Source of the DNA: Bacteroidota bacterium
GTDB taxonomy: Bacteria > Bacteroidota > Bacteroidia > 2-12-FULL-35-15
Direction: 5' to 3'
Assembly: GCA_003151815.1 (NCBI GenBank)
Contig: PLYN01000058.1
Span: 27,811-91,810, forward strand
DNA: 64,000 nucleotides
Below the pieces are notes generated by a model. That model was given only the letters and a program-made list of their open reading frames with translations. It was not told the DNA's origin and did not search any database. Below, one piece after another: positions 18,827-47,341 of this stretch. Positions within the stretch are counted from its first letter, which is position 1. Each line of letters opens with the position of its first letter. A program made the position numbers and the translations under genes.

Positions 18827-19540
18827 ATGGATAAACAGGTACAGATAAGTAAAGAACTTTTCAAAACTATTTTGCAAGACAGCGAGACAACTAAATCTGG
18901 CGACTTACAATTATTACAGACAATTTATTCTTTTGATAATCATGAAGCTTCTGCGACTGATTTAGCAAAGACACTTGGTTATAAAGACAAAATTGTAGCA
19001 AATGCAATTATTGGAAGATTTGGAAAACGTATTGCAGAAAAATATGGCGTTCAAAGAGAACAATTAGAAAATGGTTCTTATGTAACCTATACACTATTTT
19101 TTAATGGTCATTGGGAAGATGCATTTTATATATGGGAACTAAAACCAGAGCTAATACAAGCACTTGAAGAACTTTCATTAAACACTATTTCTCATGAAAA
19201 AGAAATACAAAATAGTGAAACACAAAAAACTTTTACCGAAGGAACAGCCACAGAAGTAACACTAACAAGATACGAAAGAGACCCAAAGGCAAGAACTGAA
19301 TGTATTAAATATTATGGATATACATGTTCTGTATGCTCTTTTGATTTTGAAAAACATTACGGACAAATTGGTAAAAATTTTATTCACGTTCATCACTTGA
19401 CAGAAATCTCATCAATTGGAGAGACTTATGAAATAAATCCAATCAAAGATTTACGACCTGTCTGCCCAAACTGCCATGCTATGATACATAGGAGAAAACC
19501 ATTGTTGAGTATTGAAGAATTAAAAAAAGAAATTCAATGA
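18827..19540 (+). CDS. HNH endonuclease (McrA-like C-terminal nuclease with an uncharacterised N-terminal domain)
   Basis: RDPKARTECIKYYGYTCSVCSF...FIHVHHL...CPNCHAMIH gives the CxxC...HH...CxxC-H HNH zinc-finger pattern. The stop overlaps the next start (ATGA). Confidence 0.8.
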   Translation: MDKQVQISKELFKTILQDSETTKSGDLQLLQTIYSFDNHEASATDLAKTLGYKDKIVANAIIGRFGKRIAEKYGVQREQLENGSYVTYTLFFNGHWEDAFYIWELKPELIQALEELSLNTISHEKEIQNSETQKTFTEGTATEVTLTRYERDPKARTECIKYYGYTCSVCSFDFEKHYGQIGKNFIHVHHLTEISSIGETYEINPIKDLRPVCPNCHAMIHRRKPLLSIEELKKEIQ

Positions 19541-30756: not shown

Positions 30757-30759
30757 AAA

Positions 30760-31929: not shown

Positions 31930-33180
31930 ATGAGCAAAAAAGACGATAAATATGATTCACATTCACTATCATACTATACGTGGCTACGCTTAAAAAAAAA
32001 TAAGCTTGCTATGTTTGGTTTAATGGTTATAGGTCTTAGCATGCTAACAGCTTTACTTGGTTTTTCTATTACCCCTGATTCAACACCCAACGCAAACGAT
32101 CAACTACTTGAACTATCAAAAAAACCACCTGGTTTTAAAATTCAGATGCTTGAAATAAAAAAAAATGAAGCAACACATAAAGTAAATTTTTTTTATAAAA
32201 TGATGTTTGGTGAAGTAAGCGACTACCGTTCTATACCCTTTTCTTCTTACCGATTTGATGGAACAGATATTGTTTGTGTAGAATATACCGGAAACAATAA
32301 GCGGGTTGATAGCGAAATAAAATTTAATATAGCTGATGTTTTGTATGCAATAAACTATGATACGCCTATTAAAAACAATGTCAAGGAAGGCTATATCGAA
32401 TTTTACGAATTGGGCAGCAATAAAAAAATCAGGAAATCGATAACCGAATTACGCAATGAAATCATAGCTGATAATATCATCACCAAAAAATTTATTTTAG
32501 GTACCGATCCTGCAGGACGTGATTTATTAAGCCGTTTAATGATTGGAATAAGAGTTTCTTTTTCTGTTGGTTTTGTCGCCGTATTTATCTCCGTATTTAT
32601 TGGTGTTTTGATGGGTGCATTGGCGGGCTACTACCGTGGCTGGGTGGATGATGTAATCATTTGGTTTATCAATGTGGTTTGGTCTGTACCAACACTATTA
32701 CTTGTTATTGCCATTACATTGGCATTAGGTAAAGGATTTTGGCAAGTATTTATTGCAGTTGGCCTTACGATGTGGGTTGAAGTAGCACGCGTAATTCGTG
32801 GGCAAATTATGAGCATACGAGAAAAGGAATTTGTGGAAGCAGGAAGAGCCTTAGGATTTTCGAATTTCAGAATCATTTTTCGCCATGTATTGCCCAATGT
32901 AATGGGACCGGTAATAGTTATTTCGGCTGCCAATTTTGCTTCAGCGATATTAATTGAAGCTGGTTTAAGTTTCCTTGGCATCGGTGCCCAGCCACCGACA
33001 GCCTCTTGGGGCGCTATGATCAATGCGCATAGAGGTTATATTATAGGTGATGCTCCTTACCTTGCATTTGTTCCCGGAATAGCAATCATGATAATGGTAC
33101 TTGCGTTTGTTTTGCTTGGCAATGGCTTGCGCGACTCTATGGATACCAAAGTTGTTGATGAAGATCAGACAATGTATTAA
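31930..33180 (+). CDS. ABC transporter permease, DppC/OppC family, with a long extracytoplasmic insertion
   Basis: EAA-type motif EAGRALGFSNFRIIFRHVLPN. About 140 residues lie between TM1 and TM2. The start abuts the upstream TAA. Confidence 0.8.
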   Translation: MSKKDDKYDSHSLSYYTWLRLKKNKLAMFGLMVIGLSMLTALLGFSITPDSTPNANDQLLELSKKPPGFKIQMLEIKKNEATHKVNFFYKMMFGEVSDYRSIPFSSYRFDGTDIVCVEYTGNNKRVDSEIKFNIADVLYAINYDTPIKNNVKEGYIEFYELGSNKKIRKSITELRNEIIADNIITKKFILGTDPAGRDLLSRLMIGIRVSFSVGFVAVFISVFIGVLMGALAGYYRGWVDDVIIWFINVVWSVPTLLLVIAITLALGKGFWQVFIAVGLTMWVEVARVIRGQIMSIREKEFVEAGRALGFSNFRIIFRHVLPNVMGPVIVISAANFASAILIEAGLSFLGIGAQPPTASWGAMINAHRGYIIGDAPYLAFVPGIAIMIMVLAFVLLGNGLRDSMDTKVVDEDQTMY

Positions 33181-33196
33181 TCACAATTATTTCAAA

Positions 33197-33982
33197 ATGG
33201 AATACAAAAACAAACAAAAAATATTACGAAAAAAATTGCTCTCGCTTTATTTTGAAGCGAATGCAGGCCATATAGGATGTTCTTTAAGTTGCATTGATCT
33301 ATTAATTGCTTTGTTTGAAATAAAGACAGTCAGTGAACGGGTAATTTTATCGAAAGGACATGCTGCTGCGGCTTTATACACCATATTAAATTCGACCGGG
33401 GAAATTAGTGATGAAACCTTGGCAACTTTTTATAAAAACGGAACCAAATTATCAGCACACCCATCTGCAAATTTGTTCACCAACATCCCGTTTGCTTTAG
33501 GTTCTTTAGGACATGGATTTCCAATTGGATGTGGAATAGCTTATGCGAATAAACTTCAAAACAATTCAGAAAATGTATATGTTCTTATGTCTGACGGTGA
33601 AACAAACGAAGGTACAACATGGGAAGCAGCACATTTTGCAGTTGCAAAAAAACTGGATAATATTGTTGTGTTGATAGATAAAAATAAATTACAAGGTTTT
33701 GGCTTCACCAAGGATATTTTAGGTGATACCGCAGATATTAATAAATGGAAAAGTATAGGATTTGATATTATTGAAGAGGATGGGCATGATGTTGAAAAAC
33801 TCTTTTCAAGTATCAACCTTCTCAAGAATAAAAAAAATGGAATGCCCAAATTAATTATTGCCAACACGGTAAAAGGCAAAGGTGTTAATTTTATGGAAAA
33901 TAAAATGGAATGGCACTATTTGCCAATGAATGAAGATATGTATAAAAAAGCTTTATCATCAGTAGAAGAAAATTATGCGTAA
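33197..33982 (+). CDS. transketolase, N-terminal (TPP-binding) subunit
   Basis: GHIGCSLSCIDL, SKGHAAAALY, GSLGHGF and MSDGETNEG. I prefer the ATG at 33197, because the ORF-track start overlaps the permease. Confidence 0.85.
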   Translation: MEYKNKQKILRKKLLSLYFEANAGHIGCSLSCIDLLIALFEIKTVSERVILSKGHAAAALYTILNSTGEISDETLATFYKNGTKLSAHPSANLFTNIPFALGSLGHGFPIGCGIAYANKLQNNSENVYVLMSDGETNEGTTWEAAHFAVAKKLDNIVVLIDKNKLQGFGFTKDILGDTADINKWKSIGFDIIEEDGHDVEKLFSSINLLKNKKNGMPKLIIANTVKGKGVNFMENKMEWHYLPMNEDMYKKALSSVEENYA

Positions 33983-34880
33983 CGAGTTTTCAAAAAAAGC
34001 CGAAGATATTATTTCTTCAAATCCTAAAACTGTATTTATTACAGGTGATTTGGGTTATAATGCATTAGAAAACATACAAAAAATTGCCAAAGAACGTTTT
34101 ATAAATGCCGGAGTAGCTGAACAAAATATGGTTGGTGTTGCTGCAGGATTGGCTTATAAAGGCTTTGAAACATTCGTATATAGTATTGCACCATTTGCAG
34201 TATTCCGATGTTTAGAACAAATTAAAATAGATGTTTGTATTCATAATTTGCCTGTTTATATTGTAGGTAATGGCGGTGGATATGGCTATGGAATTATGGG
34301 TGCAACTCATCACGCGATAGAAGATATTGCATGTTTAAGTCCACTGCCGAACATGACATGTTGGGTGCCTGCTTTTAAAGAAGACGTAGCTTTTTGTTTA
34401 AACCAAATAACTGATCAAAAAAAACCTGCGTATTTACGTTTGGGCTTGGGGAAACCTTATCCTGCTGCAATTGCGATTTCAAAAATCAATAAAATTGTTG
34501 CATCTGAAAGTCCAAGAATTACCATTATTGCTTTGGGTCCTGTTGTTCATAATGTATTAGAAGCTATTCCTGAAAATAAAAATATTGATTTATTTACTAT
34601 ACTTGCAATTCCACTTGTAAAATTAAGTGATGAACTAATAAAAAGTCTATCTGAAACAAAAAAAATAATTGTCATTGAGGAACATGTTGAACGTGGCGGA
34701 CTTGGAGAACATTTACTTTCAATTCTTGCTAAAATGTCCATCAAAAATATAGAATATGTTAGTTTACATGCCAAAGGATATCCGAGTAAATTATACGGAA
34801 ATCAAGCATTTCATCAAAAAGAAAGCGGTTTGGATTCAGAAAATATACGAAAAGAAATAACCAAATTATTGGAAGTTTAA
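33975..34880 (+). CDS. transketolase, C-terminal (pyrimidine-binding + C-terminal domain) subunit
   Basis: FINAGVAEQNMVGVAAGLA and GATHHAIEDIA. There is an 8-nt overlap with the N-terminal subunit gene. Confidence 0.85.
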   Translation: MRNEFSKKAEDIISSNPKTVFITGDLGYNALENIQKIAKERFINAGVAEQNMVGVAAGLAYKGFETFVYSIAPFAVFRCLEQIKIDVCIHNLPVYIVGNGGGYGYGIMGATHHAIEDIACLSPLPNMTCWVPAFKEDVAFCLNQITDQKKPAYLRLGLGKPYPAAIAISKINKIVASESPRITIIALGPVVHNVLEAIPENKNIDLFTILAIPLVKLSDELIKSLSETKKIIVIEEHVERGGLGEHLLSILAKMSIKNIEYVSLHAKGYPSKLYGNQAFHQKESGLDSENIRKEITKLLEV

Positions 34881-36848
34881 ATGGGCGAAATCAAAGAAAA
34901 AATACAACAACTACAAGGTCCCATTTTTATTTTTGGGGCCAGCGGATTTATTGGTGCTAACTTATTAAAAACTATTTTAACGTATCGTAAAGATTGTTAT
35001 GCTATAACTCACAACCCCAGATCTGCTTGGCGTTTAAAATTATTGGAAATCCCTTCTGAAAACATTTTACATTGTGATATCAATTATAAAAAATCCATTG
35101 AGTCCATATTTAAAGAACATACCCCACAAACTATTTTTAACCTTTCGGCTTACGGCGCATATAGTAAACAAAACAATACGAGTTTAATATATGAAACGAA
35201 TATTGTTGGTACTGTAAATATCCTCGAAATCTGCAAAAATATTAAAGCGTATATCCATGCCGGAAGCAGTTCGGAATATGGACTAAACAGCGATAACCCA
35301 AAAGAAAAGGACGAGTTAATACCTAATAGTCATTATTCTGTTTCTAAAATAACCACAGGGTATTTATTATCATTTTATGCACGTTTTCACAATTTACCTT
35401 GTTTAAATTTAAGATTATATTCAATCTATGGACCCTGGGAAGAACCTGATAGATTAATTCCAAAAATGGTTGAATGTGCCTTATCAAAAACATATCCTCC
35501 TTTTGTTAATCCTTCTACTTCACGTGATTTTGTTTATATTGATGATTGCGTTGAAGCATTTATCGATGCCGCCAATAATGTTAATAAGGAAAACTCCGGT
35601 CAATCAATAAACATAGGTAGCGGACAGAAAACTACTTTAGAGAAATTAGCAAATACATGTCAAAAAATATTTAATATTGAAAAAAATCCTATATGGGGAA
35701 ACATGCCTAACAGAACTTGGGATACTGCTGAATGGGTTGGTAATTATGGAAAAGCTAATGAATTAATTAATTGGCAACCAAAAACAAACCTTGAAGACGG
35801 TCTGAAAAAATATGCAGAATGGCAAAAAGAAATAAATTATACAAACAAAATATTGCCGGCTTTTCAATCTCCTAAAAAACTTGCTAAAATCAGTCCGATT
35901 ATCGCCTGCTATAAAGACGCGCAGGCTATACCCTTTATGTATAATCGTTTGGTGGAAACATTCCATAAAATAGGCTGCAATTATGAAATCATATTTGTAA
36001 ATGATAACTCACCGGACGATACAGAAAAGATACTTCAGGAAATTTGCGAAAAAGATATGAATGTTATTGCCATAAAGCATTCACGAAATTTTGGTTCTCA
36101 AGCAGCCTTCGTTAGCGGAATGGAGATTGCTACCGGAGATGCTGTTGTATTAATGGATGGGGATTTACAAGACCCTCCGGAAATGATTGCTCAATTTTTT
36201 GAGCAGTGGCAAAATGGATACCAGGTTGTTTATGGGAGACGAGTAAAAAGAGAAGCTTCTATGTTTATGAATTTTGCTTACAAGACTTTTTATAAAATAT
36301 TCAGTAAGATGTCTGATATTACTATTCCTCAAAATGCCGGGGACTTTTCTTTAATTGACACAAAAGTAGTTGAGCACATTGTTAATTTACCGGAAAAAGA
36401 ACAGTTTTTAAGGGGCTTAAGAGCTTGGGTAGGTTTTAAACAAACAGGAGTTGACTACATAAGACCAGAACGAATGTTTGGTGTTAGTACTAACAACCTA
36501 CGAAAAAATATATGGTGGGCTAAAAAAGGAATTTTATCATTTAGTTATTTACCGCTTGAGATTATGAGTTATACAGGTTTTTTCTTAACAATAGCTTCCT
36601 TTTTAGCCATCGCATTTCAAGTGGTTGGAAAAATAATGTATCCGGATTTACCGCATGGTATTCCAACCATTATTGTATTGGTATTATTTTTTGGTGGAGT
36701 GCAATTACTTGCTATTTCACTCATCGGCGAATATTTATCAAAGGTGGTTGATGAAACAAAATCTCGTCCGAAATTTATCAGAGATAAAGTAATTATTAAA
36801 GGACGAAGTATTGAAACGAACAGCGAATTGAAAAACCTTTTGAAATAG
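34881..36848 (+). CDS. fusion protein: NAD-dependent epimerase/dehydratase (SDR) + polyprenyl-phosphate glycosyltransferase (GT2, GtrB/ArnC type)
   Basis: Residues 1-320 form the SDR (GASGFIGANL, YSVSK). Residues ~336-655 form the GT2 (VNDNSPDDT, DGDLQDPP) and end in two TM helices. The ATG abuts the transketolase TAA. Confidence 0.8.
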   Translation: MGEIKEKIQQLQGPIFIFGASGFIGANLLKTILTYRKDCYAITHNPRSAWRLKLLEIPSENILHCDINYKKSIESIFKEHTPQTIFNLSAYGAYSKQNNTSLIYETNIVGTVNILEICKNIKAYIHAGSSSEYGLNSDNPKEKDELIPNSHYSVSKITTGYLLSFYARFHNLPCLNLRLYSIYGPWEEPDRLIPKMVECALSKTYPPFVNPSTSRDFVYIDDCVEAFIDAANNVNKENSGQSINIGSGQKTTLEKLANTCQKIFNIEKNPIWGNMPNRTWDTAEWVGNYGKANELINWQPKTNLEDGLKKYAEWQKEINYTNKILPAFQSPKKLAKISPIIACYKDAQAIPFMYNRLVETFHKIGCNYEIIFVNDNSPDDTEKILQEICEKDMNVIAIKHSRNFGSQAAFVSGMEIATGDAVVLMDGDLQDPPEMIAQFFEQWQNGYQVVYGRRVKREASMFMNFAYKTFYKIFSKMSDITIPQNAGDFSLIDTKVVEHIVNLPEKEQFLRGLRAWVGFKQTGVDYIRPERMFGVSTNNLRKNIWWAKKGILSFSYLPLEIMSYTGFFLTIASFLAIAFQVVGKIMYPDLPHGIPTIIVLVLFFGGVQLLAISLIGEYLSKVVDETKSRPKFIRDKVIIKGRSIETNSELKNLLK

Positions 36849-36855
36849 AAATTGT

Positions 36856-37608
36856 ATGCCAAAATATATTGAAGAAGGCTTCAAACCCATTAAGCACGAA
36901 CCTCCCACTACCCTAGTCAGGAAAATAAAATTTTACGGACGAATGCTGTTGGATCTGCAGATCCTGACTATCTATACCGATATAAAAGATGAACTTCCTA
37001 AATTTAAAGGAATGGTTTTAGATATTGGCTGTGGACAAAGTCCGTATAGATATTTACTTAACAAATCTGAAACTGAATACAAAGGAATTGATGTAATTGA
37101 AGCTTCCAGCTTTGATTATGTAAATAACGATATTACCCTTTTTAATGGCGAGACCATTCCATTCAATGATAATACCTTTGATGCCATAATATGTACGGAG
37201 GTTTTAGAACACGTATACAATTATCAGACCTTGGTTGATGAAATGTATCGCGTGTCTAAACCCGGAGCTAAAGCAGTTATTACTATTCCCTTTTCTGCAC
37301 GATATCATTATATTCCTTATGACTTTTTCAGATATACACCAAGTGCATTGGAAAAGATATTCTCTAAATTTTCTAAAGTAGAAATTACTCCGAGAGGTAC
37401 TGATGTTTTATCGATATGCGGAAAAATAATTGTTTTATTTTTCCGAAACATCATTCCCAATAGTTTTATGAGGGTGATCTGCCTACCCTTTTGGATATTG
37501 ATGTTGCCGGTTTTAGGAATAACAGTTATCATTGCCCATATAAGCAATATATTTAATTTAGGAAGCAATTTAGATCCTATAGGTTATACAATCAAGATTG
37601 TAAAATAA
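36856..37608 (+). CDS. class I SAM-dependent methyltransferase with hydrophobic C-terminal region
   Basis: VLDIGCGQSPY motif I and FDAIICTEVLEHV. The C-terminal sequence FMRVICLPFWILMLPVLGITVIIAHI is hydrophobic. Confidence 0.75.
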   Translation: MPKYIEEGFKPIKHEPPTTLVRKIKFYGRMLLDLQILTIYTDIKDELPKFKGMVLDIGCGQSPYRYLLNKSETEYKGIDVIEASSFDYVNNDITLFNGETIPFNDNTFDAIICTEVLEHVYNYQTLVDEMYRVSKPGAKAVITIPFSARYHYIPYDFFRYTPSALEKIFSKFSKVEITPRGTDVLSICGKIIVLFFRNIIPNSFMRVICLPFWILMLPVLGITVIIAHISNIFNLGSNLDPIGYTIKIVK

Positions 37609-37635: not shown

Positions 37636-39333
37636 TTACTTCCATTCGTAAATATAAATATTATAGTTTGGCTCAGGTTTATAATTAGCCAACTCATCTC
37701 GCCATACGTATTTGCTATGCTGCCCATCTATCATATCAACCAATCCTATAAGTTTGTAGTGTTCATTTACATATTTATTGGCCCATTCAAAAACATAATG
37801 ATCCACATTCGGCTGAACCATTAATGAAATTGGATGATCAAAATAAATTAAATACCTCGGTTTTGCTTTTTCAGTATCTCTAACAAATTCTCTCTGCCAA
37901 TCTTTATGCATTGGTACGTTTGTTACAAGTGCAGTAAAATAAGCGTGCCGCGACGGGGATTTCTTCTTTGTATAAAAATAAATTTGAGGTTCAGATCCAA
38001 TTAGCACTATATTATCTTCCGGTTTTGAATTTGCATTGATATAATTACCGATCTCCATTGCTTCTGGAAATGGGTTATTACCATACACTTGTCGTAAAAT
38101 TAATTCATAATTAGGATGAAAATAATATGATTTTAGCGTTTTTATATGATAAAAAACAAGAATTGAGAAAATAGATAAGTAAATATATTTGATGCTTAAT
38201 TTGCCAAGTTTAAATTTATTCTCAAAAATAGTAATTACACAATGATAGGTTAATCCTGCAACAACAGCTAAACCAGGTATAATTTGAATCCAATAATGTC
38301 CGTAAAAGAAATAGCCCGGCACTATAGTTAAAAATGAACATGCTAATAAAGTAATTCCATAAACTTTTAATTGATATGGGATAGGGCGGAATAAACAAAC
38401 AGCTATAGCTAATATTGAATGATACCAAAATAATTTATGATTTTGTAATATAGCATCGCGTGTATATCCAAAATACTTAATCCCTTCATCAAAAGTTATT
38501 AATTGTGAATATTGTTTTGAATATTCGAATGTCCAGTATAACATTTCATCAAAACCACCTTTTATTTTTATGATTAAAAAGAAAACGCAAACTATGGTAA
38601 TTCCCCCAAGCGAATAAGCAAAAATGTTTTTAAAAAATTCTTTATATTTCTTTTCCTTTTCAAATAAAAACTCTAAAAAAATTATTACTCCTCCCCATAC
38701 AGCAACAAAAACTGCAGTTGTCTTAATCATAACGGCCATGGCCATACTCATGCCGGTAAATAAATAAAGCAGAAAATGTTTTTTGCTTCGAGCATGTGCA
38801 TATAATAATAAACCTAAGCTTATAAATAACGCTACACCATGTTCTGATTGAACTGTAAAACCACTTAAACTTGGCGTTAATGAAACAAATGCCATTGTTG
38901 CTGCAGAAATAATTCCTGCGATAGGACTAAACATTTTTTTAGATGCGAAATACACAAATAGTATGGATAAAATATTAATCCACATAAAACCTGTATGAAC
39001 CCCTTTTACTGTTTCCCCAAAAAAATTAATTATGAATGCGTATAAATAAAAAATACCCGGAAATTTCATTTCATAAAAATCTTTATATGGAACTTTACCC
39101 TCGAGTAAAAGTTCACCCATATAGCTATAAATGCCTTCATCGCGTTCAAACGGGATTAATAAAAATTTTGAACGAATAGTGTAAACTAAAAAAACAAGTA
39201 TTAACAATAATGCTGTGCAAATTTTTTCCTCTAATGAAAAAGAAAATGTTTTACCGGCAATTGTAAAAGAACTGCTCGATTCGATGTTTCGAGTAATTTT
39301 TTGAGACTTATTATTACTAATTGCTTTTGCCAT
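37636..39333 (-). CDS. GT-C fold glycosyltransferase (ArnT / PMT_2-like)
   Basis: More than 12 TM helices. The acidic first-loop motif FERDEGIYSYMG...PYKD is typical of ArnT/PMT-family enzymes. Soluble C-terminal domain. Confidence 0.7.
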   Translation of the reverse strand: MAKAISNNKSQKITRNIESSSSFTIAGKTFSFSLEEKICTALLLILVFLVYTIRSKFLLIPFERDEGIYSYMGELLLEGKVPYKDFYEMKFPGIFYLYAFIINFFGETVKGVHTGFMWINILSILFVYFASKKMFSPIAGIISAATMAFVSLTPSLSGFTVQSEHGVALFISLGLLLYAHARSKKHFLLYLFTGMSMAMAVMIKTTAVFVAVWGGVIIFLEFLFEKEKKYKEFFKNIFAYSLGGITIVCVFFLIIKIKGGFDEMLYWTFEYSKQYSQLITFDEGIKYFGYTRDAILQNHKLFWYHSILAIAVCLFRPIPYQLKVYGITLLACSFLTIVPGYFFYGHYWIQIIPGLAVVAGLTYHCVITIFENKFKLGKLSIKYIYLSIFSILVFYHIKTLKSYYFHPNYELILRQVYGNNPFPEAMEIGNYINANSKPEDNIVLIGSEPQIYFYTKKKSPSRHAYFTALVTNVPMHKDWQREFVRDTEKAKPRYLIYFDHPISLMVQPNVDHYVFEWANKYVNEHYKLIGLVDMIDGQHSKYVWRDELANYKPEPNYNIYIYEWK

Positions 39334-40267
39334 AAAAATTAATTAAGGAATGATTTTTTATACAATCATAGGTTTCTGAAATGCCTTGAGATATTGGAGT
39401 AAATTTAAAATTAGGTACTACATTAATAAGCTTACTATTATCAAGATCAATCGCAGTATTATCACTTTCTCTTTTTGGGGTATAAACGATTTCAAAAGGT
39501 TCAGAAACAACTTTTTTAATCAAATCAACAATTTCATTAATTGATAAGGTATCATTTGATGAAAGGTTATATGTTTCGGATGTGTTTATATCTCTGATTA
39601 ACGATAGACTCAATAATTCGGCTACATCTTTTACATAAATATAATTACGAATATTAGAACCATCTCCAAAAATCTTAATTTCATGATCTGAAATAATTTT
39701 TTCTAAAAAAGTATTTATTAAACCTAAACCTTTTGACGTGTTTTGTCCTGCTCCGTATACATTAGAAATCCGATAAATATCTGAGTTAATACCATATTTT
39801 GTTTTATAGTATAATAAAAAATTTTCAATTGCTAATTTTGTAATTCCGTAAGGAGAGAAGGGATTTTTATTGAAATTTTCGTCAACCTTTTTATGAGTGG
39901 TACCATAAACTGTACCTGCACTGCTCAAATACACTATCTTTTTTATACCTAATTTGGACACAGCTTCCAAGAAAGTTAAAAATGGAACTAAATTTTTCTG
40001 TACATCTACTAATGGGTTTTCCCAGCTATTAGCCGGAATTGTTTCGGAGGCCAGATAATAAACAAGATCTATATTTTTAAAATAGTTTGCGTTTTCAACA
40101 TTATTAAGCAAATTTATTTGATTATATTCTATAGGAATATCTAAAATACTCTCTTTACTTCTACCAAATAAATGAAGATTAATATTGTCTTTTTTTAATA
40201 ATAAATTAGTTAAGTGACTGCCAATAAAACCATTACTTCCTATTATAGCTACGTTGATCTTATTCAT
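39317..40267 (-). CDS. NAD-dependent epimerase/dehydratase (SDR)
   Basis: GSNGFIGSHL Rossmann motif and YGITK catalytic YxxxK. 4-nt overlap with the upstream GT2 and 17-nt overlap with the downstream GT-C. Confidence 0.85.
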   Translation of the reverse strand: MNKINVAIIGSNGFIGSHLTNLLLKKDNINLHLFGRSKESILDIPIEYNQINLLNNVENANYFKNIDLVYYLASETIPANSWENPLVDVQKNLVPFLTFLEAVSKLGIKKIVYLSSAGTVYGTTHKKVDENFNKNPFSPYGITKLAIENFLLYYKTKYGINSDIYRISNVYGAGQNTSKGLGLINTFLEKIISDHEIKIFGDGSNIRNYIYVKDVAELLSLSLIRDINTSETYNLSSNDTLSINEIVDLIKKVVSEPFEIVYTPKRESDNTAIDLDNSKLINVVPNFKFTPISQGISETYDCIKNHSLINFYGKSN

Positions 40268-41190
40268 ATGTTGATGGTTTTTTCAATAACAACATACGGA
40301 CGTTGGCGTACTTCGTCGTAAATTCTTACAATATATTCACCAATAATACCTAAACAAATTAGGATTAACGAACTAAAAAAAGAAATTAATATTGCCAAGG
40401 TAGCAAAACCTTTAGCTTCAATTTTGTGAACAAAATATCCATAAATTGTATTTAAACTGTACATACACGCAAAACTAAAACCTACTAGCCCTAAAACTGT
40501 AATTAATCGAATTGGAGCACTTGAAAATGAAAATATACCATCTAAAGCAATTTTTAATAATTTTTTTAAGGTATAACCGGATTGCCCATCCACTCTATTA
40601 GCACGTTCATACTCAACACCAATTTGCTTAAAACCAACCCATGCTCTGATGCCTCTTAAAAATGGATTTTGCTCTTGTAGTTTAAGCATATTATCCACCA
40701 CGTGCTTTTTCATAACGCAAAAATCACCGCTATCAATCGGTATGTGAATATCGCTCATACCTTTTAATATTTTATAGAAACTACTATATGCCAAACGTTT
40801 TGTAAAAGATTCTTTACGTTTTTTTCTAACCCCATAAGCAACGTCATAGCCATTATCTAAAAATGTAAAAAAGTGCGGGAGTTGAGAAGGGGGATCTTGC
40901 AAATCATCGTCTATAACAGCAATATAATCGCCTGTGCAGTGGCTTAATGCAGTTTTTACAGCAATTTGATGGCCGAAATTTTTTGATAATTTTATTCCCT
41001 TTATATAGCTGTATTGTTTACTAAGTTCTTCGATTTTTTCGTAACTTTTATCACGGCTACCGTCATCTACTAAAATAACTTCCAAATTCCAGTTAGATTT
41101 CTGTCTTTGAGTATCAATAGCTTCTAGCAGCAAATTCATAAACGCTGCCGAATTGTATATAGGTACTAGTATCGAAATCTTTTTATTCAT
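40264..41190 (-). CDS. polyprenyl-phosphate glycosyltransferase (GT2, GtrB/ArnC type)
   Basis: ISILVPIYN, VDDGSRD and DDDLQDPP, with two C-terminal TM helices. A clear paralog of the GT2 half of 34881-36848. Confidence 0.85.
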   Translation of the reverse strand: MNKKISILVPIYNSAAFMNLLLEAIDTQRQKSNWNLEVILVDDGSRDKSYEKIEELSKQYSYIKGIKLSKNFGHQIAVKTALSHCTGDYIAVIDDDLQDPPSQLPHFFTFLDNGYDVAYGVRKKRKESFTKRLAYSSFYKILKGMSDIHIPIDSGDFCVMKKHVVDNMLKLQEQNPFLRGIRAWVGFKQIGVEYERANRVDGQSGYTLKKLLKIALDGIFSFSSAPIRLITVLGLVGFSFACMYSLNTIYGYFVHKIEAKGFATLAILISFFSSLILICLGIIGEYIVRIYDEVRQRPYVVIEKTINI

Positions 41191-41275: not shown

Positions 41276-42223
41276 TCATTTATTAAGCTTAGTTGCGACT
41301 TTTGGGCTGAAATTATTTCTTTTAAAATATTTAAAAACAAACGAAAAGTAATATTGAACTCTATTTATAACACCCATAAGTGATTTATCGCTAAAAGGCA
41401 CATCGCCCCAAGGTGAAAGTTTTTTATAATGTAAATAGTTTTTTTTATATGGTGAAGGGTCGAGCCAAAACCAAGGTTTAAAAAGTCTATTGGCATAATG
41501 AATTATTTTAGGATTATTATATTCATTAAAAATCTCTTCTTTTGAATAAAATCTAAAATCAGCATTTCCTAGTCCGTATTTAACTAAACCTAACCTTGCA
41601 ATCACATTCCATCTATAAGGCACTATTTGCCAGGTATCTTGTAATATAATATTTAAGGAATCCTGATCGGGATATTCTAATAAATGCTCATTATCAATTT
41701 GATATTGATAGGCCTTTTGAGAAATTTTATCTTCTTGCCATTTTTTACAATCTATTAACATCATCCCTGCATTAAATGATTTTGTAAGATTAATTTTTTC
41801 TAAATGTTTTACCGGGCACAAAACCTCATAAGATGCTGATATGATATTCCCTTCCTGATTAACATTATACAACTCGGTTACATCCCCCTCAATGATCATG
41901 TCGCAATCTAAATACAACATTTTATCGATCAACAATGTATCTAATAAAAAGTATCTGTAATATGTGGCTTCGCTGTATATTTCAAATATTTTTAGTTTTT
42001 CAAAATATGCTCTATCAGGTTTTAAGAAATGTAATTTACAACCAAATTTAATTGCAACTTCTTCAAATCGATTTATATCTTCCGGAAGTATTCCTCCATC
42101 TACAATATAAATATCAAATAATTCCGGGTATTTTGTGTTTGACATTAGGGAATAAATCATTATTCCTAAGTGTTGGGCGTAGTTTTTATCAGTTGCACAA
42201 CCAATATTATATCTCGTAGTCAT
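41276..42223 (-). CDS. family 8 glycosyltransferase
   Basis: GCATDKNYAQHLG, YLDCDMII (DxD), FNAGMMLID and H-x-x-N region. Confidence 0.8.
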   Translation of the reverse strand: MTTRYNIGCATDKNYAQHLGIMIYSLMSNTKYPELFDIYIVDGGILPEDINRFEEVAIKFGCKLHFLKPDRAYFEKLKIFEIYSEATYYRYFLLDTLLIDKMLYLDCDMIIEGDVTELYNVNQEGNIISASYEVLCPVKHLEKINLTKSFNAGMMLIDCKKWQEDKISQKAYQYQIDNEHLLEYPDQDSLNIILQDTWQIVPYRWNVIARLGLVKYGLGNADFRFYSKEEIFNEYNNPKIIHYANRLFKPWFWLDPSPYKKNYLHYKKLSPWGDVPFSDKSLMGVINRVQYYFSFVFKYFKRNNFSPKVATKLNK

Positions 42224-42227
42224 AAAT

Positions 42228-43121
42228 TTATTTCTTTTTATAAATGACTAATGCAGTTCTTTTGCCAACGATATCATTAAAAAATTTAAACGAAAATTTT
42301 AAAATTGACGAGGTAAAATTACTGTTTATTCCCGTTTTACGTTTAAAATATTGAATGAGATAGTCAAAGCCTTCGTATTTAAAATCTTGCACTTGTAAGT
42401 CAAAATGGGAAGCCATTTTTGTTAAACTATCTTTGTTCCATAATCCCATATGATGGGGCGGTAAGTTTAATGTATGGTACTTATCGTATTTCATAAAATA
42501 AGGTTCGTTATTAGGCACTGCAATAATTAAAACACCATCTTTTTTTAGCATTTTCACCATGCAACTTATAAATTCACCGGGCTGTTTAACATGTTCTAAA
42601 ATTTGGAATCCGGTAACGTAATCAAACTTCCCAATATTTTTTTCGGCAAAAATTTCAATAGGTTCATTACTAAATTCAACACCTTTGTTCTTTAATAAGT
42701 CAGCTGCAAAATCACTTTTATCAAGTCCATAGCAATGACAATTTTTTCCATTTAACTCATCAAAGAAACTTCCCGACCCACAGCCAACATCCAAAACGGA
42801 TGAATTATCCTTAATCATATTAGCACCCTCTTTAAACTCCCATTTTGTATCTTGATACAATCTATTTTTATTACTCTTATATAAATCAATATAAAACTTA
42901 TTATCGCCCTCTATGGATAATGGATAATAAAAACGAAATCCTGTTTCGTTACATTGCATGATTTTTACCTCGTTCACATTTTTAAACAGATACGATATAT
43001 TTAAATTATAATTTTTAAAATATTTTTTTATAATTTTTCCAACATTTAAAACTTCAATTTCTTTTACTGTAGCGTTTTTTATTAAGGTGTTTTCTATCAT
43101 TTTATAAAAATAATTAAACAT
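42228..43121 (-). CDS. class I SAM-dependent methyltransferase with ~100-aa N-terminal extension
   Basis: VLDVGCGSGSF, FDYVTGFQILEHV and DGVLIIAVPN. Confidence 0.75.
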   Translation of the reverse strand: MFNYFYKMIENTLIKNATVKEIEVLNVGKIIKKYFKNYNLNISYLFKNVNEVKIMQCNETGFRFYYPLSIEGDNKFYIDLYKSNKNRLYQDTKWEFKEGANMIKDNSSVLDVGCGSGSFFDELNGKNCHCYGLDKSDFAADLLKNKGVEFSNEPIEIFAEKNIGKFDYVTGFQILEHVKQPGEFISCMVKMLKKDGVLIIAVPNNEPYFMKYDKYHTLNLPPHHMGLWNKDSLTKMASHFDLQVQDFKYEGFDYLIQYFKRKTGINSNFTSSILKFSFKFFNDIVGKRTALVIYKKK

Positions 43122-43242: not shown

Positions 43243-43938
43243 ATGTCTGAATTTCTTAATCCAAAACTAAGTTCTCCTTTTTATTTTACAAGAAAAGGGT
43301 TATATGGAGCTGCAATTATTTTTTCCAAATCTGCTAAAGGTGGGCGTTTATTGGATTTTGGCTGTGGTTCAAAACCATATAGATCTTTATTTAAGGTAGA
43401 TGAATATATTGGAATAGATTATGAAAATGAAGGGCATCCTCATGACGAGGAGCAAATAGATATTTTTTATGATGGCGGTAAATTACCCTTTAAAGATGCC
43501 GAATTTGATTATGTTTTATGTACAGAAGTGTTTGAGCATTTGTTTGATCTAGATGATAAACTTGTTGAATTTAATAGAGTTCTTAAGGATAATGGGTTGA
43601 TGTTTGTGACTTGCCCTTTTGTATGGAACGAACATGAAATACCTTATGACTATGCGCGATATACTTCGTTTGCATTAAACGATAAATTTAAAAAGAAAGG
43701 TTTTGAAGTTGTATCATACAATAAAGGGGGGACTTTTATTGAAACGTATACACAAACTTTCTTTTTATATTTTTCGAGAAAAGACACCAAATTTAAAAGT
43801 GATAAAATCGGTATATTTAAAAAGAGTGTAATTTTTATGGTTAACTTATTTGGAAAAATAATGAACAAACTATTGCCGAATAACGATTCGCTTTATTTAA
43901 CTAATATTTACGTTGTAAGAAAATCAAAAAACCTATAA
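43243..43938 (+). CDS. class I SAM-dependent methyltransferase (paralog of 36856-37608)
   Basis: LLDFGCGSKPY, FDYVLCTEVFEHL and IPYDYARYT align with VLDIGCGQSPY, FDAIICTEVLEHV and IPYDFFRYT of the other copy. Confidence 0.75.
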   Translation: MSEFLNPKLSSPFYFTRKGLYGAAIIFSKSAKGGRLLDFGCGSKPYRSLFKVDEYIGIDYENEGHPHDEEQIDIFYDGGKLPFKDAEFDYVLCTEVFEHLFDLDDKLVEFNRVLKDNGLMFVTCPFVWNEHEIPYDYARYTSFALNDKFKKKGFEVVSYNKGGTFIETYTQTFFLYFSRKDTKFKSDKIGIFKKSVIFMVNLFGKIMNKLLPNNDSLYLTNIYVVRKSKNL

Positions 43939-43959
43939 TGTTTCAAATTATTTAAAGCA

Positions 43960-46569
43960 ATGATACAAGTATTTAATATAAAAAAAGAATATTTAAGATA
44001 TTCCATCATGACATGGTTTGGAATATTAGTTGCCATAATATCAAGTAAAATCATTTCATCAGTTTATGTAACTAATATTGAAGATGCAAATAAAATAGCC
44101 CAAGATATTTTACTAAATCCAGCAATGGCGCAGCCAGAACCTATGGAGAAAGCGGTTTTTTTTGGAGGTATAATTATAACAGTACTATCTTTGTTTTTAT
44201 TTTATTTTATTTTAGATCGTTTTTTAAAAAAAAATGACAATGAGATAAAAGATTCATTGTTTAATATTGTTACTACTATTAACGTTGTAATTAGCTGTTA
44301 TTTCCTGTACTATTGTTTTATTACCGTTAACCCTTTTTTTGCAGCACCTCAAAATTCGCATGATGCTCTTGCTAAAACCAATTTCGATTTTTATTTTTTT
44401 CAAACTTTTTTATATAAGCGATTAGTATTATACACTATTATTTTATTCCCACTATTGGCTTTTCTATTAATTAAAAACATTAAACTTTCAGAGCACCTTA
44501 ATTTATTATTGAAAAAAACTGTATTTGTTTTATGTCTTGGTTTAAGCGTATTAGCCTCAGCCATATCAATTTTTAAATTCCCTTATACCTATGAAAACAA
44601 ATACGATTTTAATGCTATTTATTATTCAGTAGTTCAGGTATATAATGGCTTCCCATTATTAGTAGATGGTTTTACAAATACGTATGGATTGTACCCACAT
44701 TTTGTAATGCCAATTTTAAAATTAACCGGATTAAGTGTATTAAGTTTTTCAATGACAATGAGTATTTTATTGTTTTTTTGTTTTTGTTTTTTGTACTATT
44801 TCATGAATAAAATCATTAATAACAAACTCATTTTATTGTTTGGTTTTTGTTTAGTGTATTTTATGTGCTATTCATTTCAAACAACCACATTAAATTATGA
44901 TGCCGCTTTCTCTTGCCATCCTGTGCGTTGGATTATGCCATTATTACTATTTGCATACATAGTTTATTATATGTCAAATCAAATGAAAGCTAATTTTATG
45001 TTTAAGAAGTGGCGTTTTTTTAAAGTGATAGAAATCATCCCTATTAAAATAGTATTCTTTTTTGTTTTTGCATTTGGCGTATTATGGAACCCTGACTTTG
45101 GATTTTTTTCTTTTTTAAGTTTAATCGCTTTTTATGTTTTTTATGAGTTTGATATAAATGAAATTAAAAAATCATTGATTCAGCTATTGTTTAATGTAAT
45201 ACAAGCATTTTTTTTATTAGTAATAGCATTTATTTTGTATTATGTTTATATAAAATTCGCATATCATCAAGCTCCCGATTTTTCTCTTTTATATGAAACA
45301 ATTAGTACTTATTCAGTAATTGGTTTTGGTATGCTTCCAATGCCAACAACCATGCATCCGTGGATGTTGATAGCATTGATTTATGGTATAGGTTGGGTTA
45401 TATCTATTATTAATTTTTTAAATAATCGTAAAACGCAATTTGCATTAGCTATTTTTGTTTTAACCTTTTTAGGAACTATCGGATTGTCTTATTACCAAGG
45501 CAGGAGCCATAATTGGCAATTAATGGTTTGTAACCTTTCTGCATTTATCTTATTGCCTATTTACGCGGATAAACTATTGATAACCGCAAGAGGACATAAG
45601 TTATTTATACCAATTTTTTCGATGTCACTCTTTGTAATTGCATTTGCTCCTTTTCAATTATTAGGAAGTTGGACTAAGCTACAGGAATTAGTGTTTACTA
45701 AAAAAGATAAAGCCATTAATCAAATAGAACAAAATCATATATATTCTACAGCCTCTGCAATTGATAAGTTATGTGAAGATGGAGAAAAAATATATATCCT
45801 ATCTGCCGATTATTATCAAGGGTTATATCACACTTTATCTAAAACGGCTTCGGTTGCTAATCCTGGGTTGGGCGATTTATATACTAAAAAACAATACGAA
45901 CTAATTATTGAAAAACTAAAAAATGAAAATCAAAAACTGTTCTTGGAACCTCAGTTTTACCGCCCAAAGGATACAAAATTATTAAACGTTATAGGAGCCT
46001 ATTACGAACTCAATGCAATTGAAAATATGCCGACATTGTATTATTATAAAAAAAGAGAGTTTGGTAAATATCAACCTAAATTAATAAATGATGCCAGCAC
46101 CCTTTTTTATATTAATACCAATGCAAATGGCAATGATAATTTTAAATTATATGAAGCTGCAGTAAAACCAATACAATTAGATAACGCATTTACTATTGAT
46201 GTTATCTTTACTTCACCTTCAAACATTATCACAAACATTAATACTGGTGGTACAATATTATCTAATTTAGATGGCTACAAAGGTTTTGTAGTTCAACAAC
46301 AAAAAGATAATCCAAGTCAATTCATTTTTGGATTTAAAGGCCGGGGGATTTTATGTAACGTTGAATTAAACAAACAAACAAAAATGACTTTTAAGGTAGA
46401 CGGCATAAATATTTCGTGTTATGTAAATGATATGTTGCAATCTAAATCAATGGTTACAGAGGTATTTGAAAATAGCCAACAACCTATTTGTGTGGGAAGT
46501 ATACAAAACATGTCGAATTTCTTTTTAGGAAATATTGATGAAATAAAAATATCAAATGGAGCTAAATGA
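43960..46569 (+). CDS. 869-aa polytopic membrane protein with C-terminal LamG-like (concanavalin A-type) domain
   Basis: About 14 or more hydrophobic helices over residues 1-560, then a soluble region. The C-terminal ~150 aa carry the LamG pattern (...MTFKVDGINISCYVNDML...PICVGS...FFLGNIDEIKISN). Confidence 0.7.
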   Translation: MIQVFNIKKEYLRYSIMTWFGILVAIISSKIISSVYVTNIEDANKIAQDILLNPAMAQPEPMEKAVFFGGIIITVLSLFLFYFILDRFLKKNDNEIKDSLFNIVTTINVVISCYFLYYCFITVNPFFAAPQNSHDALAKTNFDFYFFQTFLYKRLVLYTIILFPLLAFLLIKNIKLSEHLNLLLKKTVFVLCLGLSVLASAISIFKFPYTYENKYDFNAIYYSVVQVYNGFPLLVDGFTNTYGLYPHFVMPILKLTGLSVLSFSMTMSILLFFCFCFLYYFMNKIINNKLILLFGFCLVYFMCYSFQTTTLNYDAAFSCHPVRWIMPLLLFAYIVYYMSNQMKANFMFKKWRFFKVIEIIPIKIVFFFVFAFGVLWNPDFGFFSFLSLIAFYVFYEFDINEIKKSLIQLLFNVIQAFFLLVIAFILYYVYIKFAYHQAPDFSLLYETISTYSVIGFGMLPMPTTMHPWMLIALIYGIGWVISIINFLNNRKTQFALAIFVLTFLGTIGLSYYQGRSHNWQLMVCNLSAFILLPIYADKLLITARGHKLFIPIFSMSLFVIAFAPFQLLGSWTKLQELVFTKKDKAINQIEQNHIYSTASAIDKLCEDGEKIYILSADYYQGLYHTLSKTASVANPGLGDLYTKKQYELIIEKLKNENQKLFLEPQFYRPKDTKLLNVIGAYYELNAIENMPTLYYYKKREFGKYQPKLINDASTLFYINTNANGNDNFKLYEAAVKPIQLDNAFTIDVIFTSPSNIITNINTGGTILSNLDGYKGFVVQQQKDNPSQFIFGFKGRGILCNVELNKQTKMTFKVDGINISCYVNDMLQSKSMVTEVFENSQQPICVGSIQNMSNFFLGNIDEIKISNGAK

Positions 46570-46643
46570 ATTTTGTTTTAGATTAAAAATTCTTGATATT
46601 TATTGGTATAATGGCAAAAAACAGTTGGTGAAACTGCCTCTAT

Positions 46644-46864
46644 GAGTTTCGCAAACGTATTGGAGCAGAGGGCGTAAAATTAATTTTAAAAGAAAGTATC
46701 CTTGTGAATGGAAAAGATGCAGATGAGGATACCTTGAGCGGAGACACAACTGTTCAAGAAAAAAATATCCCTTATCCGATGATAAATTACATAAAAAAAT
46801 CATAGACAAGTGTCAATCAATTGCAGCTAGCGAACAAGTAGAACTCCACATTGATTTTTTTCAG
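46644..46864 (+). pseudogene. IS5-family transposase relic (frameshifted internal fragment)
   Basis: EFRKRIGAEGVKLILKESILVNG...GDTTVQEKNIPYP, then after a frame shift DDKLHKKIIDKCQSIAASEQVEL. This matches the FRKRIG...DTTVQEKNI.FPTD.KL block of IS5-family transposases. There are stops upstream and no DDE domain. Confidence 0.6.
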
Positions 46865-46876
46865 TAAAATTCAAGT

Positions 46877-46917
46877 ATAAAAAACAAACACTCATACCTT
46901 TTCGATATGAGTGTTTG
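46877..46917 (-). terminator. intrinsic terminator of the DUF3127 gene
   Basis: 12-bp perfect stem caaacactcata/tatgagtgtttg with a 9-nt loop. A T-run follows on the minus strand. Confidence 0.6.
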
Positions 46918-46969
46918 TGAAGTCTAAATATAAGTTGACGTTTTCACGTTTTTAAATTTAGAGATATTA

Positions 46970-47341
46970 TTAAAATGGCAAATCATCACCCTCTGTAGCA
47001 GCGGAAAATGTTTCAGAAACATTTTCCATTTTATTTGCTGATGAAGCAGCTCCAGAACCCGCATTAGCGCCACCTTCAATACGCCAAGCCTCAAGTGTAT
47101 TAAAATATTTTATTTCGCCTTGCGGACTAGTCCACTCGCGACCACGAAGGTTGAAATGCACTTTTATTTCAGAACCAACAGCATAGTTATCAATTAAATT
47201 AGTTTTGTCTTGTGTTAATTGAAATGAAATGTGCTGAGGGTATTGTGATGAATTGTCAGTAAGAACAAAATCTCTCTTTTTGAATTTTTCTGATACCTGT
47301 TGCGCTTCGCTTTTTACTTTTAAGATTCCTGTGATGTCCAT
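46970..47341 (-). CDS. DUF3127 (OB-fold-like) protein with SSB-type acidic C-terminal tip
   Basis: MDITGILKVKSEAQQVSEKFKKRDFVLTD...ISFQLTQDK...WRIE is the DUF3127 pattern. A Gly/Ala/Ser linker is followed by a terminal DDLPF. Confidence 0.75.
   Translation of the reverse strand: MDITGILKVKSEAQQVSEKFKKRDFVLTDNSSQYPQHISFQLTQDKTNLIDNYAVGSEIKVHFNLRGREWTSPQGEIKYFNTLEAWRIEGGANAGSGAASSANKMENVSETFSAATEGDDLPF

Follow-up and report, generated by a model that had tools for sequence, protein, structure and literature searches.

A predicted periplasmic GT-C glycosyltransferase with a C-terminal LamG domain, encoded in a glycosylation locus of a Bacteroidota bacterium

Architecture and predicted fold of the 869-aa protein

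The 64,000-nucleotide stretch of DNA analysed here (the window; contig PLYN01000058.1 of the Bacteroidota assembly GCA_003151815.1) carries a gene for an 869-amino-acid (aa) polytopic membrane protein, preceded by a gene for an S-adenosylmethionine (SAM)-dependent methyltransferase. A preliminary description of this DNA had put the membrane protein forward as a candidate periplasmic GT-C transferase, and the computed fold, the predicted topology and the gene context all support that proposal, so that we consider it highly probable that the 869-aa protein is a periplasm-facing GT-C glycosyltransferase. The two genes are co-oriented and are separated by exactly 21 nt (43939-43959), the spacing that had been noted at first. 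Hydropathy analysis and AlphaFold2 (AF2) helices placed 15 transmembrane helices within aa 1-569, where at least 14 had been counted across about 560 residues; a soluble segment follows, and a beta-sandwich begins at about aa 705 (nt ~46072), near the position (about nt 46102) from which a LamG-like region had been described. The gene caller of the source contig starts the protein at Met17 (853 aa; P0001), whereas close homologs back the 869-aa form.

The AF2 model of the full-length protein had a predicted local distance difference test score (pLDDT) of 92.1 and a predicted template modelling score (pTM) of 0.89, and the model of aa 1-700 reached a pLDDT of 91.2 and a pTM of 0.92. When the full-length model was searched with Foldseek, jelly-roll matches dominated (botulinum-toxin Hc and similar), yet PglB and ArnT were also listed. 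Because the LamG domain dominates the whole-protein fold search, the aa 1-700 model was needed to expose the GT-C signal. The best 20 matches of this model in the PDB were all GT-C enzymes, with probabilities of 0.96-1.00 and template modelling (TM) scores of 0.22-0.47, and they included ArnT, PglB, STT3, DPY19, Pmt4, AftA (8if8) and EmbC (7bve). The closest solved structure was ArnT (5f15; E 3e-4, TM score 0.47 on the target). Transporters outside the GT-C group matched with a probability of at most 0.12 and TM scores of ~0.1, and an FtsW complex with a probability of 0.23. A viral structure library, used as a proxy for phage Gtr* enzymes, returned nothing at E<=0.001. As modelled, then, computation shows a membrane domain with a 15-helix GT-C(A)-type fold; a GT-C-like core is present, and the polymerase that the preliminary description had offered as an alternative found no support.

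The density of lysine plus arginine (K+R) was 0.234 in the inside loops compared with 0.055 in the outside loops, a difference that holds in 63/63 homologs and therefore predicts a topology with the N-terminus inside and the C-terminus outside. With this topology the alpha/beta domain, the LamG domain and every conserved polar residue are predicted to be periplasmic; for the LamG domain, a cytoplasmic location had been named in the preliminary description as a finding that would speak against its proposal. Conservation, Pfam content and topology were assessed over a diverse alignment of 63 family members. In this alignment E63, G243, P321, R323, G381, G455, W468 and R515 were invariant, and E60 (95%), D314, D/E379, H466 and H517 were 81-100% conserved. 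The conserved motifs of the membrane domain are PEPxE (aa 59-63; nt 44134-44148), a loop YDFNAxYYSxVQVxxGxPLLVDGFTNTYGLYPHF (aa 214-248), D314, PxR323 (nt 44926-44928), LWNPD379, H466-P-W468 and YYQGR515SH517 (nt 45502-45510), while the alpha/beta domain conserves E609, N634-P635-G636 and D/E639. Both E63 and E60 lie in the first outside loop (EL1; PEPxE), ~25-28 residues after the first transmembrane helix. Since the proposed catalytic acid of solved GT-C enzymes also follows the first transmembrane helix (PMC11127046), E63/E60 may be its equivalent, a correspondence drawn from position in the sequence.

Conservation and distribution of the family

Homologs were searched for in a set of 5.8 billion proteins, and an exhaustive HMMER scan covered 1.84 billion representatives. 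The former yielded 94 close-to-moderate homologs, all of them named 'hypothetical', 'LamG domain-containing' or 'conserved membrane protein of unknown function', and a profile search of the same set recovered only this unannotated family. At E<=1e-3 HMMER returned up to 941 clusters, part of which may match through LamG alone, and at E<=1e-30 it returned 192. The family falls into two length classes, one of ~870-920 aa with the LamG domain and one of ~680 aa without it. Relatives with N-terminal extensions (~230-340 aa) were scanned for informative fusions, and none was found.

Pfam and NCBIfam gave nothing for the membrane part of the 869-aa protein, and neither these two libraries nor the PDB sequence and profile searches gave a confident hit in a functionally unrelated family, which would have told against the original proposal. 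Membership of several known families was tried and rejected. The YfhO model (PF09586) matched 0/63 members, while a YfhO gene beside the family gene in one locus (L015) served as the positive control (4.7e-72); in size the protein resembles YfhO-type enzymes, as the preliminary description had noted. STT3/PglB (GT66) membership was rejected because the WWD[YWF]G motif occurs in 0/63 members, and O-antigen ligase/Wzy polymerase membership because Pfam found no Wzy_C or WaaL match and no such fold was among the structural matches.

The comparison of gene neighbourhoods drew on 67 loci from GTDB species representatives together with metagenome and metagenome-assembled genome (MAG) contigs, 71 in total (clustering over 69-71); loci are given below by L numbers. 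They come from at least seven phyla plus one archaeal MAG (Methanoperedens): most are from Bacteroidota, and the others include Geobacter, Smithella, Spirochaetota, Vulcanimicrobiota, Sericytochromatia, Acidobacteriota and Cloacimonadota, as well as the isolate Fontibacillus phaseoli (L046). Within Bacteroidota the family is sparse, with 0/67 genome loci from a named Bacteroides, Flavobacterium, Porphyromonas or Tannerella genome. Tandem paralogs or several copies per genome were observed in Chitinophagaceae-type and other MAGs (L021, L028, L033, L044, L052, L072), and three MAGs carry two family loci each (L016/L024, L029/L033, L020/L030).

The LamG domain of the window protein scored 19.9 bits with Laminin_G_3 in the whole protein and 25.0 bits as an isolated domain, both below the 27.6-bit cut-off. 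The same model (PF13385) is above its cut-off in most homologs, with a best E-value of 1.1e-21, and this part of the AF2 model matches LNS/LamG structures in Foldseek with TM scores of 0.45-0.54 (2h0b, 0.49-0.50; 1qu0, 0.54), further matches being the botulinum-toxin Hc domain and arabinanase domain-4. The LamG call is thus weak by hidden Markov model (HMM) in the window protein and secure at the level of family and fold. By analogy we regard the domain, which the ~680-aa relatives lack, as a candidate module for binding the acceptor glycan. Secreted LamG proteins with Por_Secre_tail, the signal for type IX secretion (T9SS), adjoin the family gene in two Bacteroidota loci (L074:12811-14085 and L005:377-1390); in sequence, the LamG domain of the family itself shows no detectable similarity to them.

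The glycosylation locus in the window

The 869-aa gene stands at the end of a glycosylation locus of ~29.8-46.6 kb that is compositionally distinct and is flanked by housekeeping genes (Table 1); its GC content is 0.28-0.30 at 38-46 kb compared with 0.33-0.39 in the flanks. The LPG_synthase_TM protein that opens the locus is followed by a 389-aa GT2 (together 29803-31929), and across the 64 kb no Wzx, Wzy or initiating phosphoglycosyltransferase was found.

Table 1. Coordinates of the 869-aa protein gene, its domains and the surrounding genes in the window
Feature	Position	Strand	Basis or remark
LPG_synthase_TM (flippase-like) membrane protein	29803-30756		Opens the glycosylation locus
Split transketolase-like thiamine diphosphate (ThDP) enzyme, N half	33101-33982	+	Pfam, NCBIfam
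Split transketolase-like ThDP enzyme, C half	33975-34880	+	Pfam, NCBIfam
Short-chain dehydrogenase/reductase (SDR) fused to GtrB/PgfS-type polyprenyl-phosphate glycosyltransferase	34881-36848	+	
SAM methyltransferase of the conserved module	36856-37608	+	Orthologs in L019 (E 2e-142) and L007
GT39/ArnT-family GT-C (PMT_2)	37636-39333	-	
GalE-like epimerase	39317-40267	-	
GtrB/PgfS-like GT2	40264-41190	-	
GT8 glycosyltransferase	41276-42223	-	Conserved in L074
SAM methyltransferase	42228-43121	-	Conserved in L074
SAM-dependent methyltransferase, 231 aa	43243-43938	+	Pfam Methyltransf_11/23
869-aa membrane protein gene, ATG start	43960-46569	+	Open reading frame (ORF)
Membrane domain, aa 1-570, 15 transmembrane helices, N-terminus inside	43960-45669	+	
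Predicted periplasmic alpha/beta domain, aa 571-704	45670-46071	+	AF2 secondary structure, conservation
LamG/concanavalin-like beta-sandwich, aa 705-869, plus stop codon	46072-46569	+	

The split transketolase-like (TK) pair translationally abuts the SDR-GT2 fusion, and the methyltransferase gene at 36856 comes next. The ORF at 33101 begins with TTG and overlaps the ABC-permease gene before it (31930-33180); its true start is probably later, since the nucleotide synteny with L074 begins at 33248. The fusion carries the SDR motif GSSSEYG...YSVSK, which we take to be of the dehydratase/decarboxylase type, and the SDR at 39317 carries SSAGTVYG, which we take to be GalE-like. Both the fusion and the GT2 at 40264 matched the models for PgfS and ArnC at full length, scoring highest with PgfS (231 and 237 bits against a cut-off of 500 bits). 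The two GtrB-type GT2s and the single recognisable GT-C (PMT_2) counted in the preliminary description were all recovered, one of the GT2s as the C-terminal half of the fusion. The paralogy it had noted between the methyltransferase at 43243 and the one that follows the fusion was likewise confirmed (38% identity over 149 aa, E 1e-24).

The GT8 and methyltransferase pair (41276-43121) diverges from the pair formed by the methyltransferase at 43243 and the 869-aa gene. The epimerase and GT2 block (39317-41190) is absent from the syntenic locus L074, where a 246-aa GT2 immediately precedes the family gene instead; together with the low GC content, this suggests recent indels in the locus.

Gene neighbourhoods of the related loci

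In an unbiased clustering of neighbouring genes, the GtrB-type GT2 came first (24 loci), followed by an acetolactate synthase (ALS)-like ThDP enzyme (23), an SDR (22), DegT/RfbH (20), a nucleoside diphosphate (NDP)-sugar transferase (16) and GtrA (8 + 4). Targeted searches within 10 kb detected GtrB in 28/71 loci, in 10 of them at most 87 nt from the family gene, a ThDP enzyme (YerE-like or split transketolase-like) in 26/71, RfbH/DegT in 22 and GtrA in 14. Moreover, 21 of the 28 loci with GtrB also held a ThDP enzyme; these are from Bacteroidota, Bacillota, Sericytochromatia, Vulcanimicrobiota, Acidobacteriota and one unclassified bacterium (L072). In the Spirochaetota and Cloacimonadota loci the ThDP enzyme was present and GtrB was not detected. 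Of the 26 loci with a ThDP enzyme, 11 contain no large polytopic protein other than that of the family.

Other putative periplasmic transferases recur beside the family. YfhO (PF09586) was found in 6 loci and, where inspected, directly downstream of the family gene (L015:12634-15117, L012:12650-15121, L016:3362-5908), and PMT_2+TPR proteins were found in 7 and 5 loci (for example L028:12926-14836 and L039:11869-14157). Loci of this kind look like hubs of periplasmic glycosylation. A polytopic 727-aa protein (L046:7581-9764; homologs in L051, L067 and L069), with ~11 transmembrane helices, a ~290-aa C-terminal domain and no Pfam or NCBIfam match, adjoins the GtrA/GtrB/YerE-like cluster of the family in Fontibacillus, Sericytochromatia and Cloacimonadota. 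It may be a further unrecognised GT-C.

Donor pathway and conserved module

The Fontibacillus locus (L046) holds a set of donor genes: glucose-1-phosphate cytidylyltransferase, cytidine diphosphate (CDP)-glucose 4,6-dehydratase and RfbH, all NCBIfam equivalogs above cut-off, together with GtrA, GtrB, a reductase and an ALS-like ThDP enzyme that does not reach the ALS cut-offs, in a cluster that sits in a Wzt/ABC-transporter glycan locus. YerE ligates pyruvate to CDP-4-keto-3,6-dideoxyglucose and YerF reduces the product (PMC9306805), and AviB1/AviB2 form a two-protein ThDP system for equivalent branching in antibiotic sugars (PMC4753412); by comparison, the gene set of L046 matches the yersiniose logic. 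In three Chitinophagaceae loci (L009, L010, L026) the YerE-like enzyme is joined by genes for NeuB-like, HAD phosphatase and FkbM methyltransferase proteins, and in a fourth locus (L003:19906-22697) by one for an HpcH/HpaI aldolase. These gene sets resemble the aldolase-containing erwiniose-type clusters known for longer-branched sugars (PMC9306805).

The order of the genes ties the family to one set of partners. In L019 (5366-12598) the genes for TK-N, TK-C, the SDR-GT2 fusion, the methyltransferase and the family protein are contiguous, and in L007 (1938-10010) the same run is preceded by a further methyltransferase gene; in both, a single methyltransferase gene lies between fusion and family gene. 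In L023 the order is DegT, YerE-like enzyme, fusion and family gene, with the fusion 14 nt upstream of the family gene. Since the place held by the split TK in L019, L007 and the window is taken by a YerE-like enzyme in L023, two unrelated ThDP enzymes fill the same slot of the module. In L074 (423-4813), which encodes a 61%-identical relative, TK-N, fusion, methyltransferase and TK-C are interleaved, and a counterpart of the methyltransferase at 43243 is also present upstream. A minus-strand block interrupts the module both in L074 and in the window, where it separates 33101-37608 from the family gene. From the conserved order we infer that the 869-aa protein is paired with the fusion, the TK enzyme and the methyltransferase at 36856. 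The GT39 GT-C at 37636 would then belong with the epimerase at 39317 and the GT2 at 40264, as a Pgf-like trio.

Proposed function and alternative explanations

Overall, these results suggest that the 869-aa protein is likely to be the GT-C of a three-component system whose donor is made by the SDR-GT2, TK and methyltransferase module. In the mechanism that we propose, the SDR domain of the fusion would convert an NDP-sugar to a 4-keto sugar; C-branching by the split TK-like ThDP enzyme and methylation would come next, in either order and on the nucleotide- or the lipid-bound sugar, with the methyltransferases at 36856 and 43243 acting alongside the fusion and the ThDP enzyme in making the donor. 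The cytoplasmic GtrB-type GT2 domain would load the monosaccharide onto polyprenyl (undecaprenyl) phosphate, and the lipid-linked sugar would be flipped across the membrane, for which the LPG_synthase_TM protein (29803) is a candidate flippase in the window. In the periplasm an acceptor in the envelope would receive the sugar from the 869-aa GT-C. The carboxylates of EL1, E63 and E60, might serve as catalytic base or metal ligands, R323, R515, H466 and H517 might hold the phosphate, and the LamG module might bind the acceptor glycan in the manner of the carbohydrate-binding module (CBM) of the GT136 enzyme ORF12.

The cognate donor synthase in the window is most likely the fusion, in which case the deoxysugar moved is probably C-branched and/or methylated. 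The counterparts in most related loci are the genes of a CDP-3,6-dideoxyhexose pathway and a YerE-like enzyme, for yersiniose-type branching. As to the acceptor, we lean slightly towards a polysaccharide or lipopolysaccharide (LPS)-type glycan; a protein-linked glycan or protein seems rather unlikely, and an acceptor of another kind more doubtful still. More tentatively, the family may be a new GT-C family, and a candidate CAZy family, that delivers ThDP-made C-branched deoxysugars from polyprenyl phosphate to periplasmic envelope glycans, the sugar being of the yersiniose or erwiniose type in most phyla and a transketolase-derived, methylated variant in the window.

Several observations weigh against this interpretation. 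The fold scores are moderate (TM scores of 0.37-0.47, E ~1e-4). At the level of sequence there is no link to any GT-C family: Pfam searches at E<=1 on the 63 members, and on the isolated transmembrane and middle domains, returned only LamG, and PDB sequence and profile searches gave zero matches for the membrane domain. Membership of GT39/GT83 (PMT_2/ArnT) was rejected, HHalign against the neighbouring GT39 family giving a probability of 1.9%. In the neighbourhoods, GtrB is missing within 10 kb in 43/71 loci, many of them on truncated contigs but several not (for example L002 and L005). Extra GT-Cs (YfhO, PMT_2-TPR and the uncharacterised 727-aa protein) occur in several loci, and the two GT-Cs of L074 share one GtrB-type gene, so that a simple one-to-one pairing of GT-C and GtrB fails. 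The window contains no GtrA homolog in its 64 kb, and its donor must differ from that of the majority pathway because it holds no CDP-sugar genes.

Of the alternatives, two keep the glycosyltransferase fold and change what is transferred or where. With the same fold and donor logic, the protein could be a PMT/PgfM1/TfpW-like O-glycosyltransferase acting on Ser/Thr of envelope proteins, or could extend a protein-linked glycan. Pmt4 and DPY19 are among the fold matches, the GT2s of the window are closest to PgfS of a streptococcal protein O-glycosylation system, PMT_2-TPR GT-Cs recur near the family, and methylation is common in Bacteroidota O-glycans, whose transferases remain unknown (PMC12871550). 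We nevertheless regard a protein acceptor of this kind as unlikely, given that the C-terminal module is a lectin-type LamG and not a peptide-binding TPR or MIR, that the family gene of L046 lies inside a Wzt/ABC-transporter glycan locus with GT1s and that of L019 is flanked by further sugar-modifying enzymes, and that the family is sparse in Bacteroidota, with none of the 67 genome loci from the named genera listed above. Similarly improbable is a GT-C for an ordinary unbranched sugar, with the ThDP genes feeding a separate cytoplasmic glycosyltransferase and the donor of the window perhaps coming from the GT2 at 40264. Such an arrangement would suit CDP-yersiniose, a nucleotide-activated sugar that is used by a cytoplasmic glycosyltransferase in Yersinia, as well as the Geobacter locus (L001) and the 6 other GtrB loci without a ThDP enzyme and the single GtrB-type gene for two GT-Cs in L074. 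It sits poorly with the ThDP enzyme found in the other 21 of the 28 GtrB loci, with the two non-homologous ThDP types at the same place in the module (L023 against L019, L007 and the window), and with the TK halves of L074, which are interleaved with the SDR-GT2 fusion and methyltransferase.

The remaining two alternatives depart further from the proposed periplasmic transfer of a lipid-linked monosaccharide. An en-bloc oligosaccharyltransferase (OTase), ligase or polymerase acting on undecaprenyl-diphosphate-linked glycans (PglB-, WaaL- or Wzy-like) is very improbable, even though the best fold matches include PglB and STT3 and neither the OTase nor the ligase of O-glycosylation in Bacteroidota has been discovered (PMC12871550). 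The WWDYG motif is found in 0/63 members, Pfam gave no Wzy_C, WaaL or other such match, and only the FtsW complex represents ligase- or polymerase-like folds among the matches. Moreover, the dominant neighbours, GtrB and GtrA, are the hallmark of monosaccharide-phosphate donors, and Wzx, Wzy and an initiating phosphoglycosyltransferase are lacking in the window. The distribution is also too sparse for a phylum-wide OTase; since the family is sparse, spread over several phyla, without WWDYG and linked to GtrB, we reject it as the missing general O-OTase or ligase of Bacteroidota. That the protein is no glycosyltransferase at all, and instead transports or flips the lipid-linked sugar or plays a structural part in the membrane as a lectin-bearing protein, is hardly credible. 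The lack of a catalytic motif recognisable by sequence and of GtrA in the window would fit such a role, but transporter folds matched poorly, the invariant carboxylates, arginines and histidines cluster on the periplasmic face, and the family does not replace GtrA, because GtrA co-occurs with it in 14 loci.

Comparison with known systems

Among the closest known enzymes in architecture is ORF12 of Citrobacter youngae O1, the founding enzyme of GT136, which likewise joins a GT-C(A) membrane domain to a C-terminal periplasmic, beta-rich carbohydrate-binding domain (PMC11127046). The family itself is unannotated; its architecture, for which the preliminary description named no described family, has in ORF12 a precedent of its kind. 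ORF12 acts on the glycan after polymerisation, using a polyprenyl-phosphate monosaccharide donor in a three-component pentofuranose system; its C-terminal CBM binds the unmodified O-polysaccharide, and at its discovery no earlier GT family resembled it in sequence (PMC11127046). The two proteins also differ: ORF12 has 11 transmembrane helices and the 869-aa protein 15, the donor of ORF12 depends on a UbiA-type phosphoribose synthase and MATE flipping whereas GtrB-type GT2 and GtrA recur with the 869-aa family, and the CBM of ORF12 is not described as LamG.

ArnT (GT83), which transfers 4-amino-arabinose to lipid A and is the best structural match (5f15), takes an undecaprenyl-phosphate-linked monosaccharide from the GtrB-type synthase ArnC, and its sugar is tailored before lipid loading by an SDR (ArnA) and a DegT-type aminotransferase, enzyme types comparable to those near the 869-aa family. 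It differs in having no sequence or profile similarity to the 869-aa protein, a small periplasmic domain without a lectin module, and the lipid A phosphate as acceptor. ArnT also has fewer transmembrane helices, about 13. With the serotype-converting glucosyltransferases of the Gtr* (GtrC) type the family shares a logic in which GtrB is the synthase, GtrA the flippase and a polytopic GT-C adds the side-chain sugar in the periplasm; there is no sequence match, however, the 869-aa protein is much larger and has additional alpha/beta and LamG domains, and the donor of Gtr* derives from uridine diphosphate (UDP)-glucose whereas the pathway of the family involves ThDP-dependent branching.

PglB/STT3 (GT66) matched in the GT-C(A) fold with E-values of 4e-4 to 4e-3 and likewise have a transmembrane domain followed by a periplasmic or luminal alpha/beta domain; unlike them, the family has no WWDYG motif (0/63), its neighbours point to monosaccharide-phosphate donors, and the window has no genes for assembling an undecaprenyl-diphosphate-linked glycan. 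In the YfhO (PF09586) and PgfM1/PgfS/PgfE systems of Gram-positive bacteria, YfhO is similar in size and a GT-C likewise acts beside a synthase of the CsbB/GtrB/PgfS type. The arabinosyltransferases EmbC, AftA and AftD are GT-Cs with 13-15 or more transmembrane helices, of which AftA and EmbC were among the fold matches, and Emb and AftD carry C-terminal carbohydrate-binding modules; in contrast to the 869-aa protein, with which they share no sequence similarity, their donor is decaprenyl-phosphate arabinofuranose and they are confined to Mycobacteriales. Judged by these likenesses, the family is one that would work like the ArnT, Gtr* and GT136 enzymes and is by sequence a member of none of the families tested.

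Periplasmic glycosylation by GT-C enzymes contributes to serotype through O-antigen side chains, to antibiotic resistance (ArnT) and to the glycosylation of envelope proteins, and new GT-C families are still being founded, GT136 dating from 2024. The linkage of GtrB/GtrA with branching enzymes leads us to predict that polyprenyl-phosphate-linked branched sugars exist and are added outside the cytoplasm; if so, there would be a second and so far undescribed route, outside the cytoplasm, by which branched sugars reach bacterial glycans. Confirmation would add a new class of donor to the three-component paradigm, would give an annotation handle for hundreds of loci, and would provide a GT-C plus lectin module for glycoengineering.

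Further features of the window

Downstream of the 869-aa gene, a non-coding stretch of 400 nt (46570-46970) had the look of a possible transposase remnant, but it gave no Pfam match and does not resemble the LamG/T9SS gene located after the ortholog in L074. Within it lie an ORF fragment of 56 codons with higher GC content (46635-46802) and the hairpin terminator of the downstream minus-strand gene (46918-46884). Scans for sigma-70 promoters and terminators around the 869-aa gene stayed at background level. Elsewhere in the window, an ORF for a 237-aa protein with an HNH endonuclease domain (18827-19540) lies in the thiamine operon between ThiC (16950) and ThiE/ThiD/ThiE/ThiG/ThiH, and may be a mobile or homing element inserted there.

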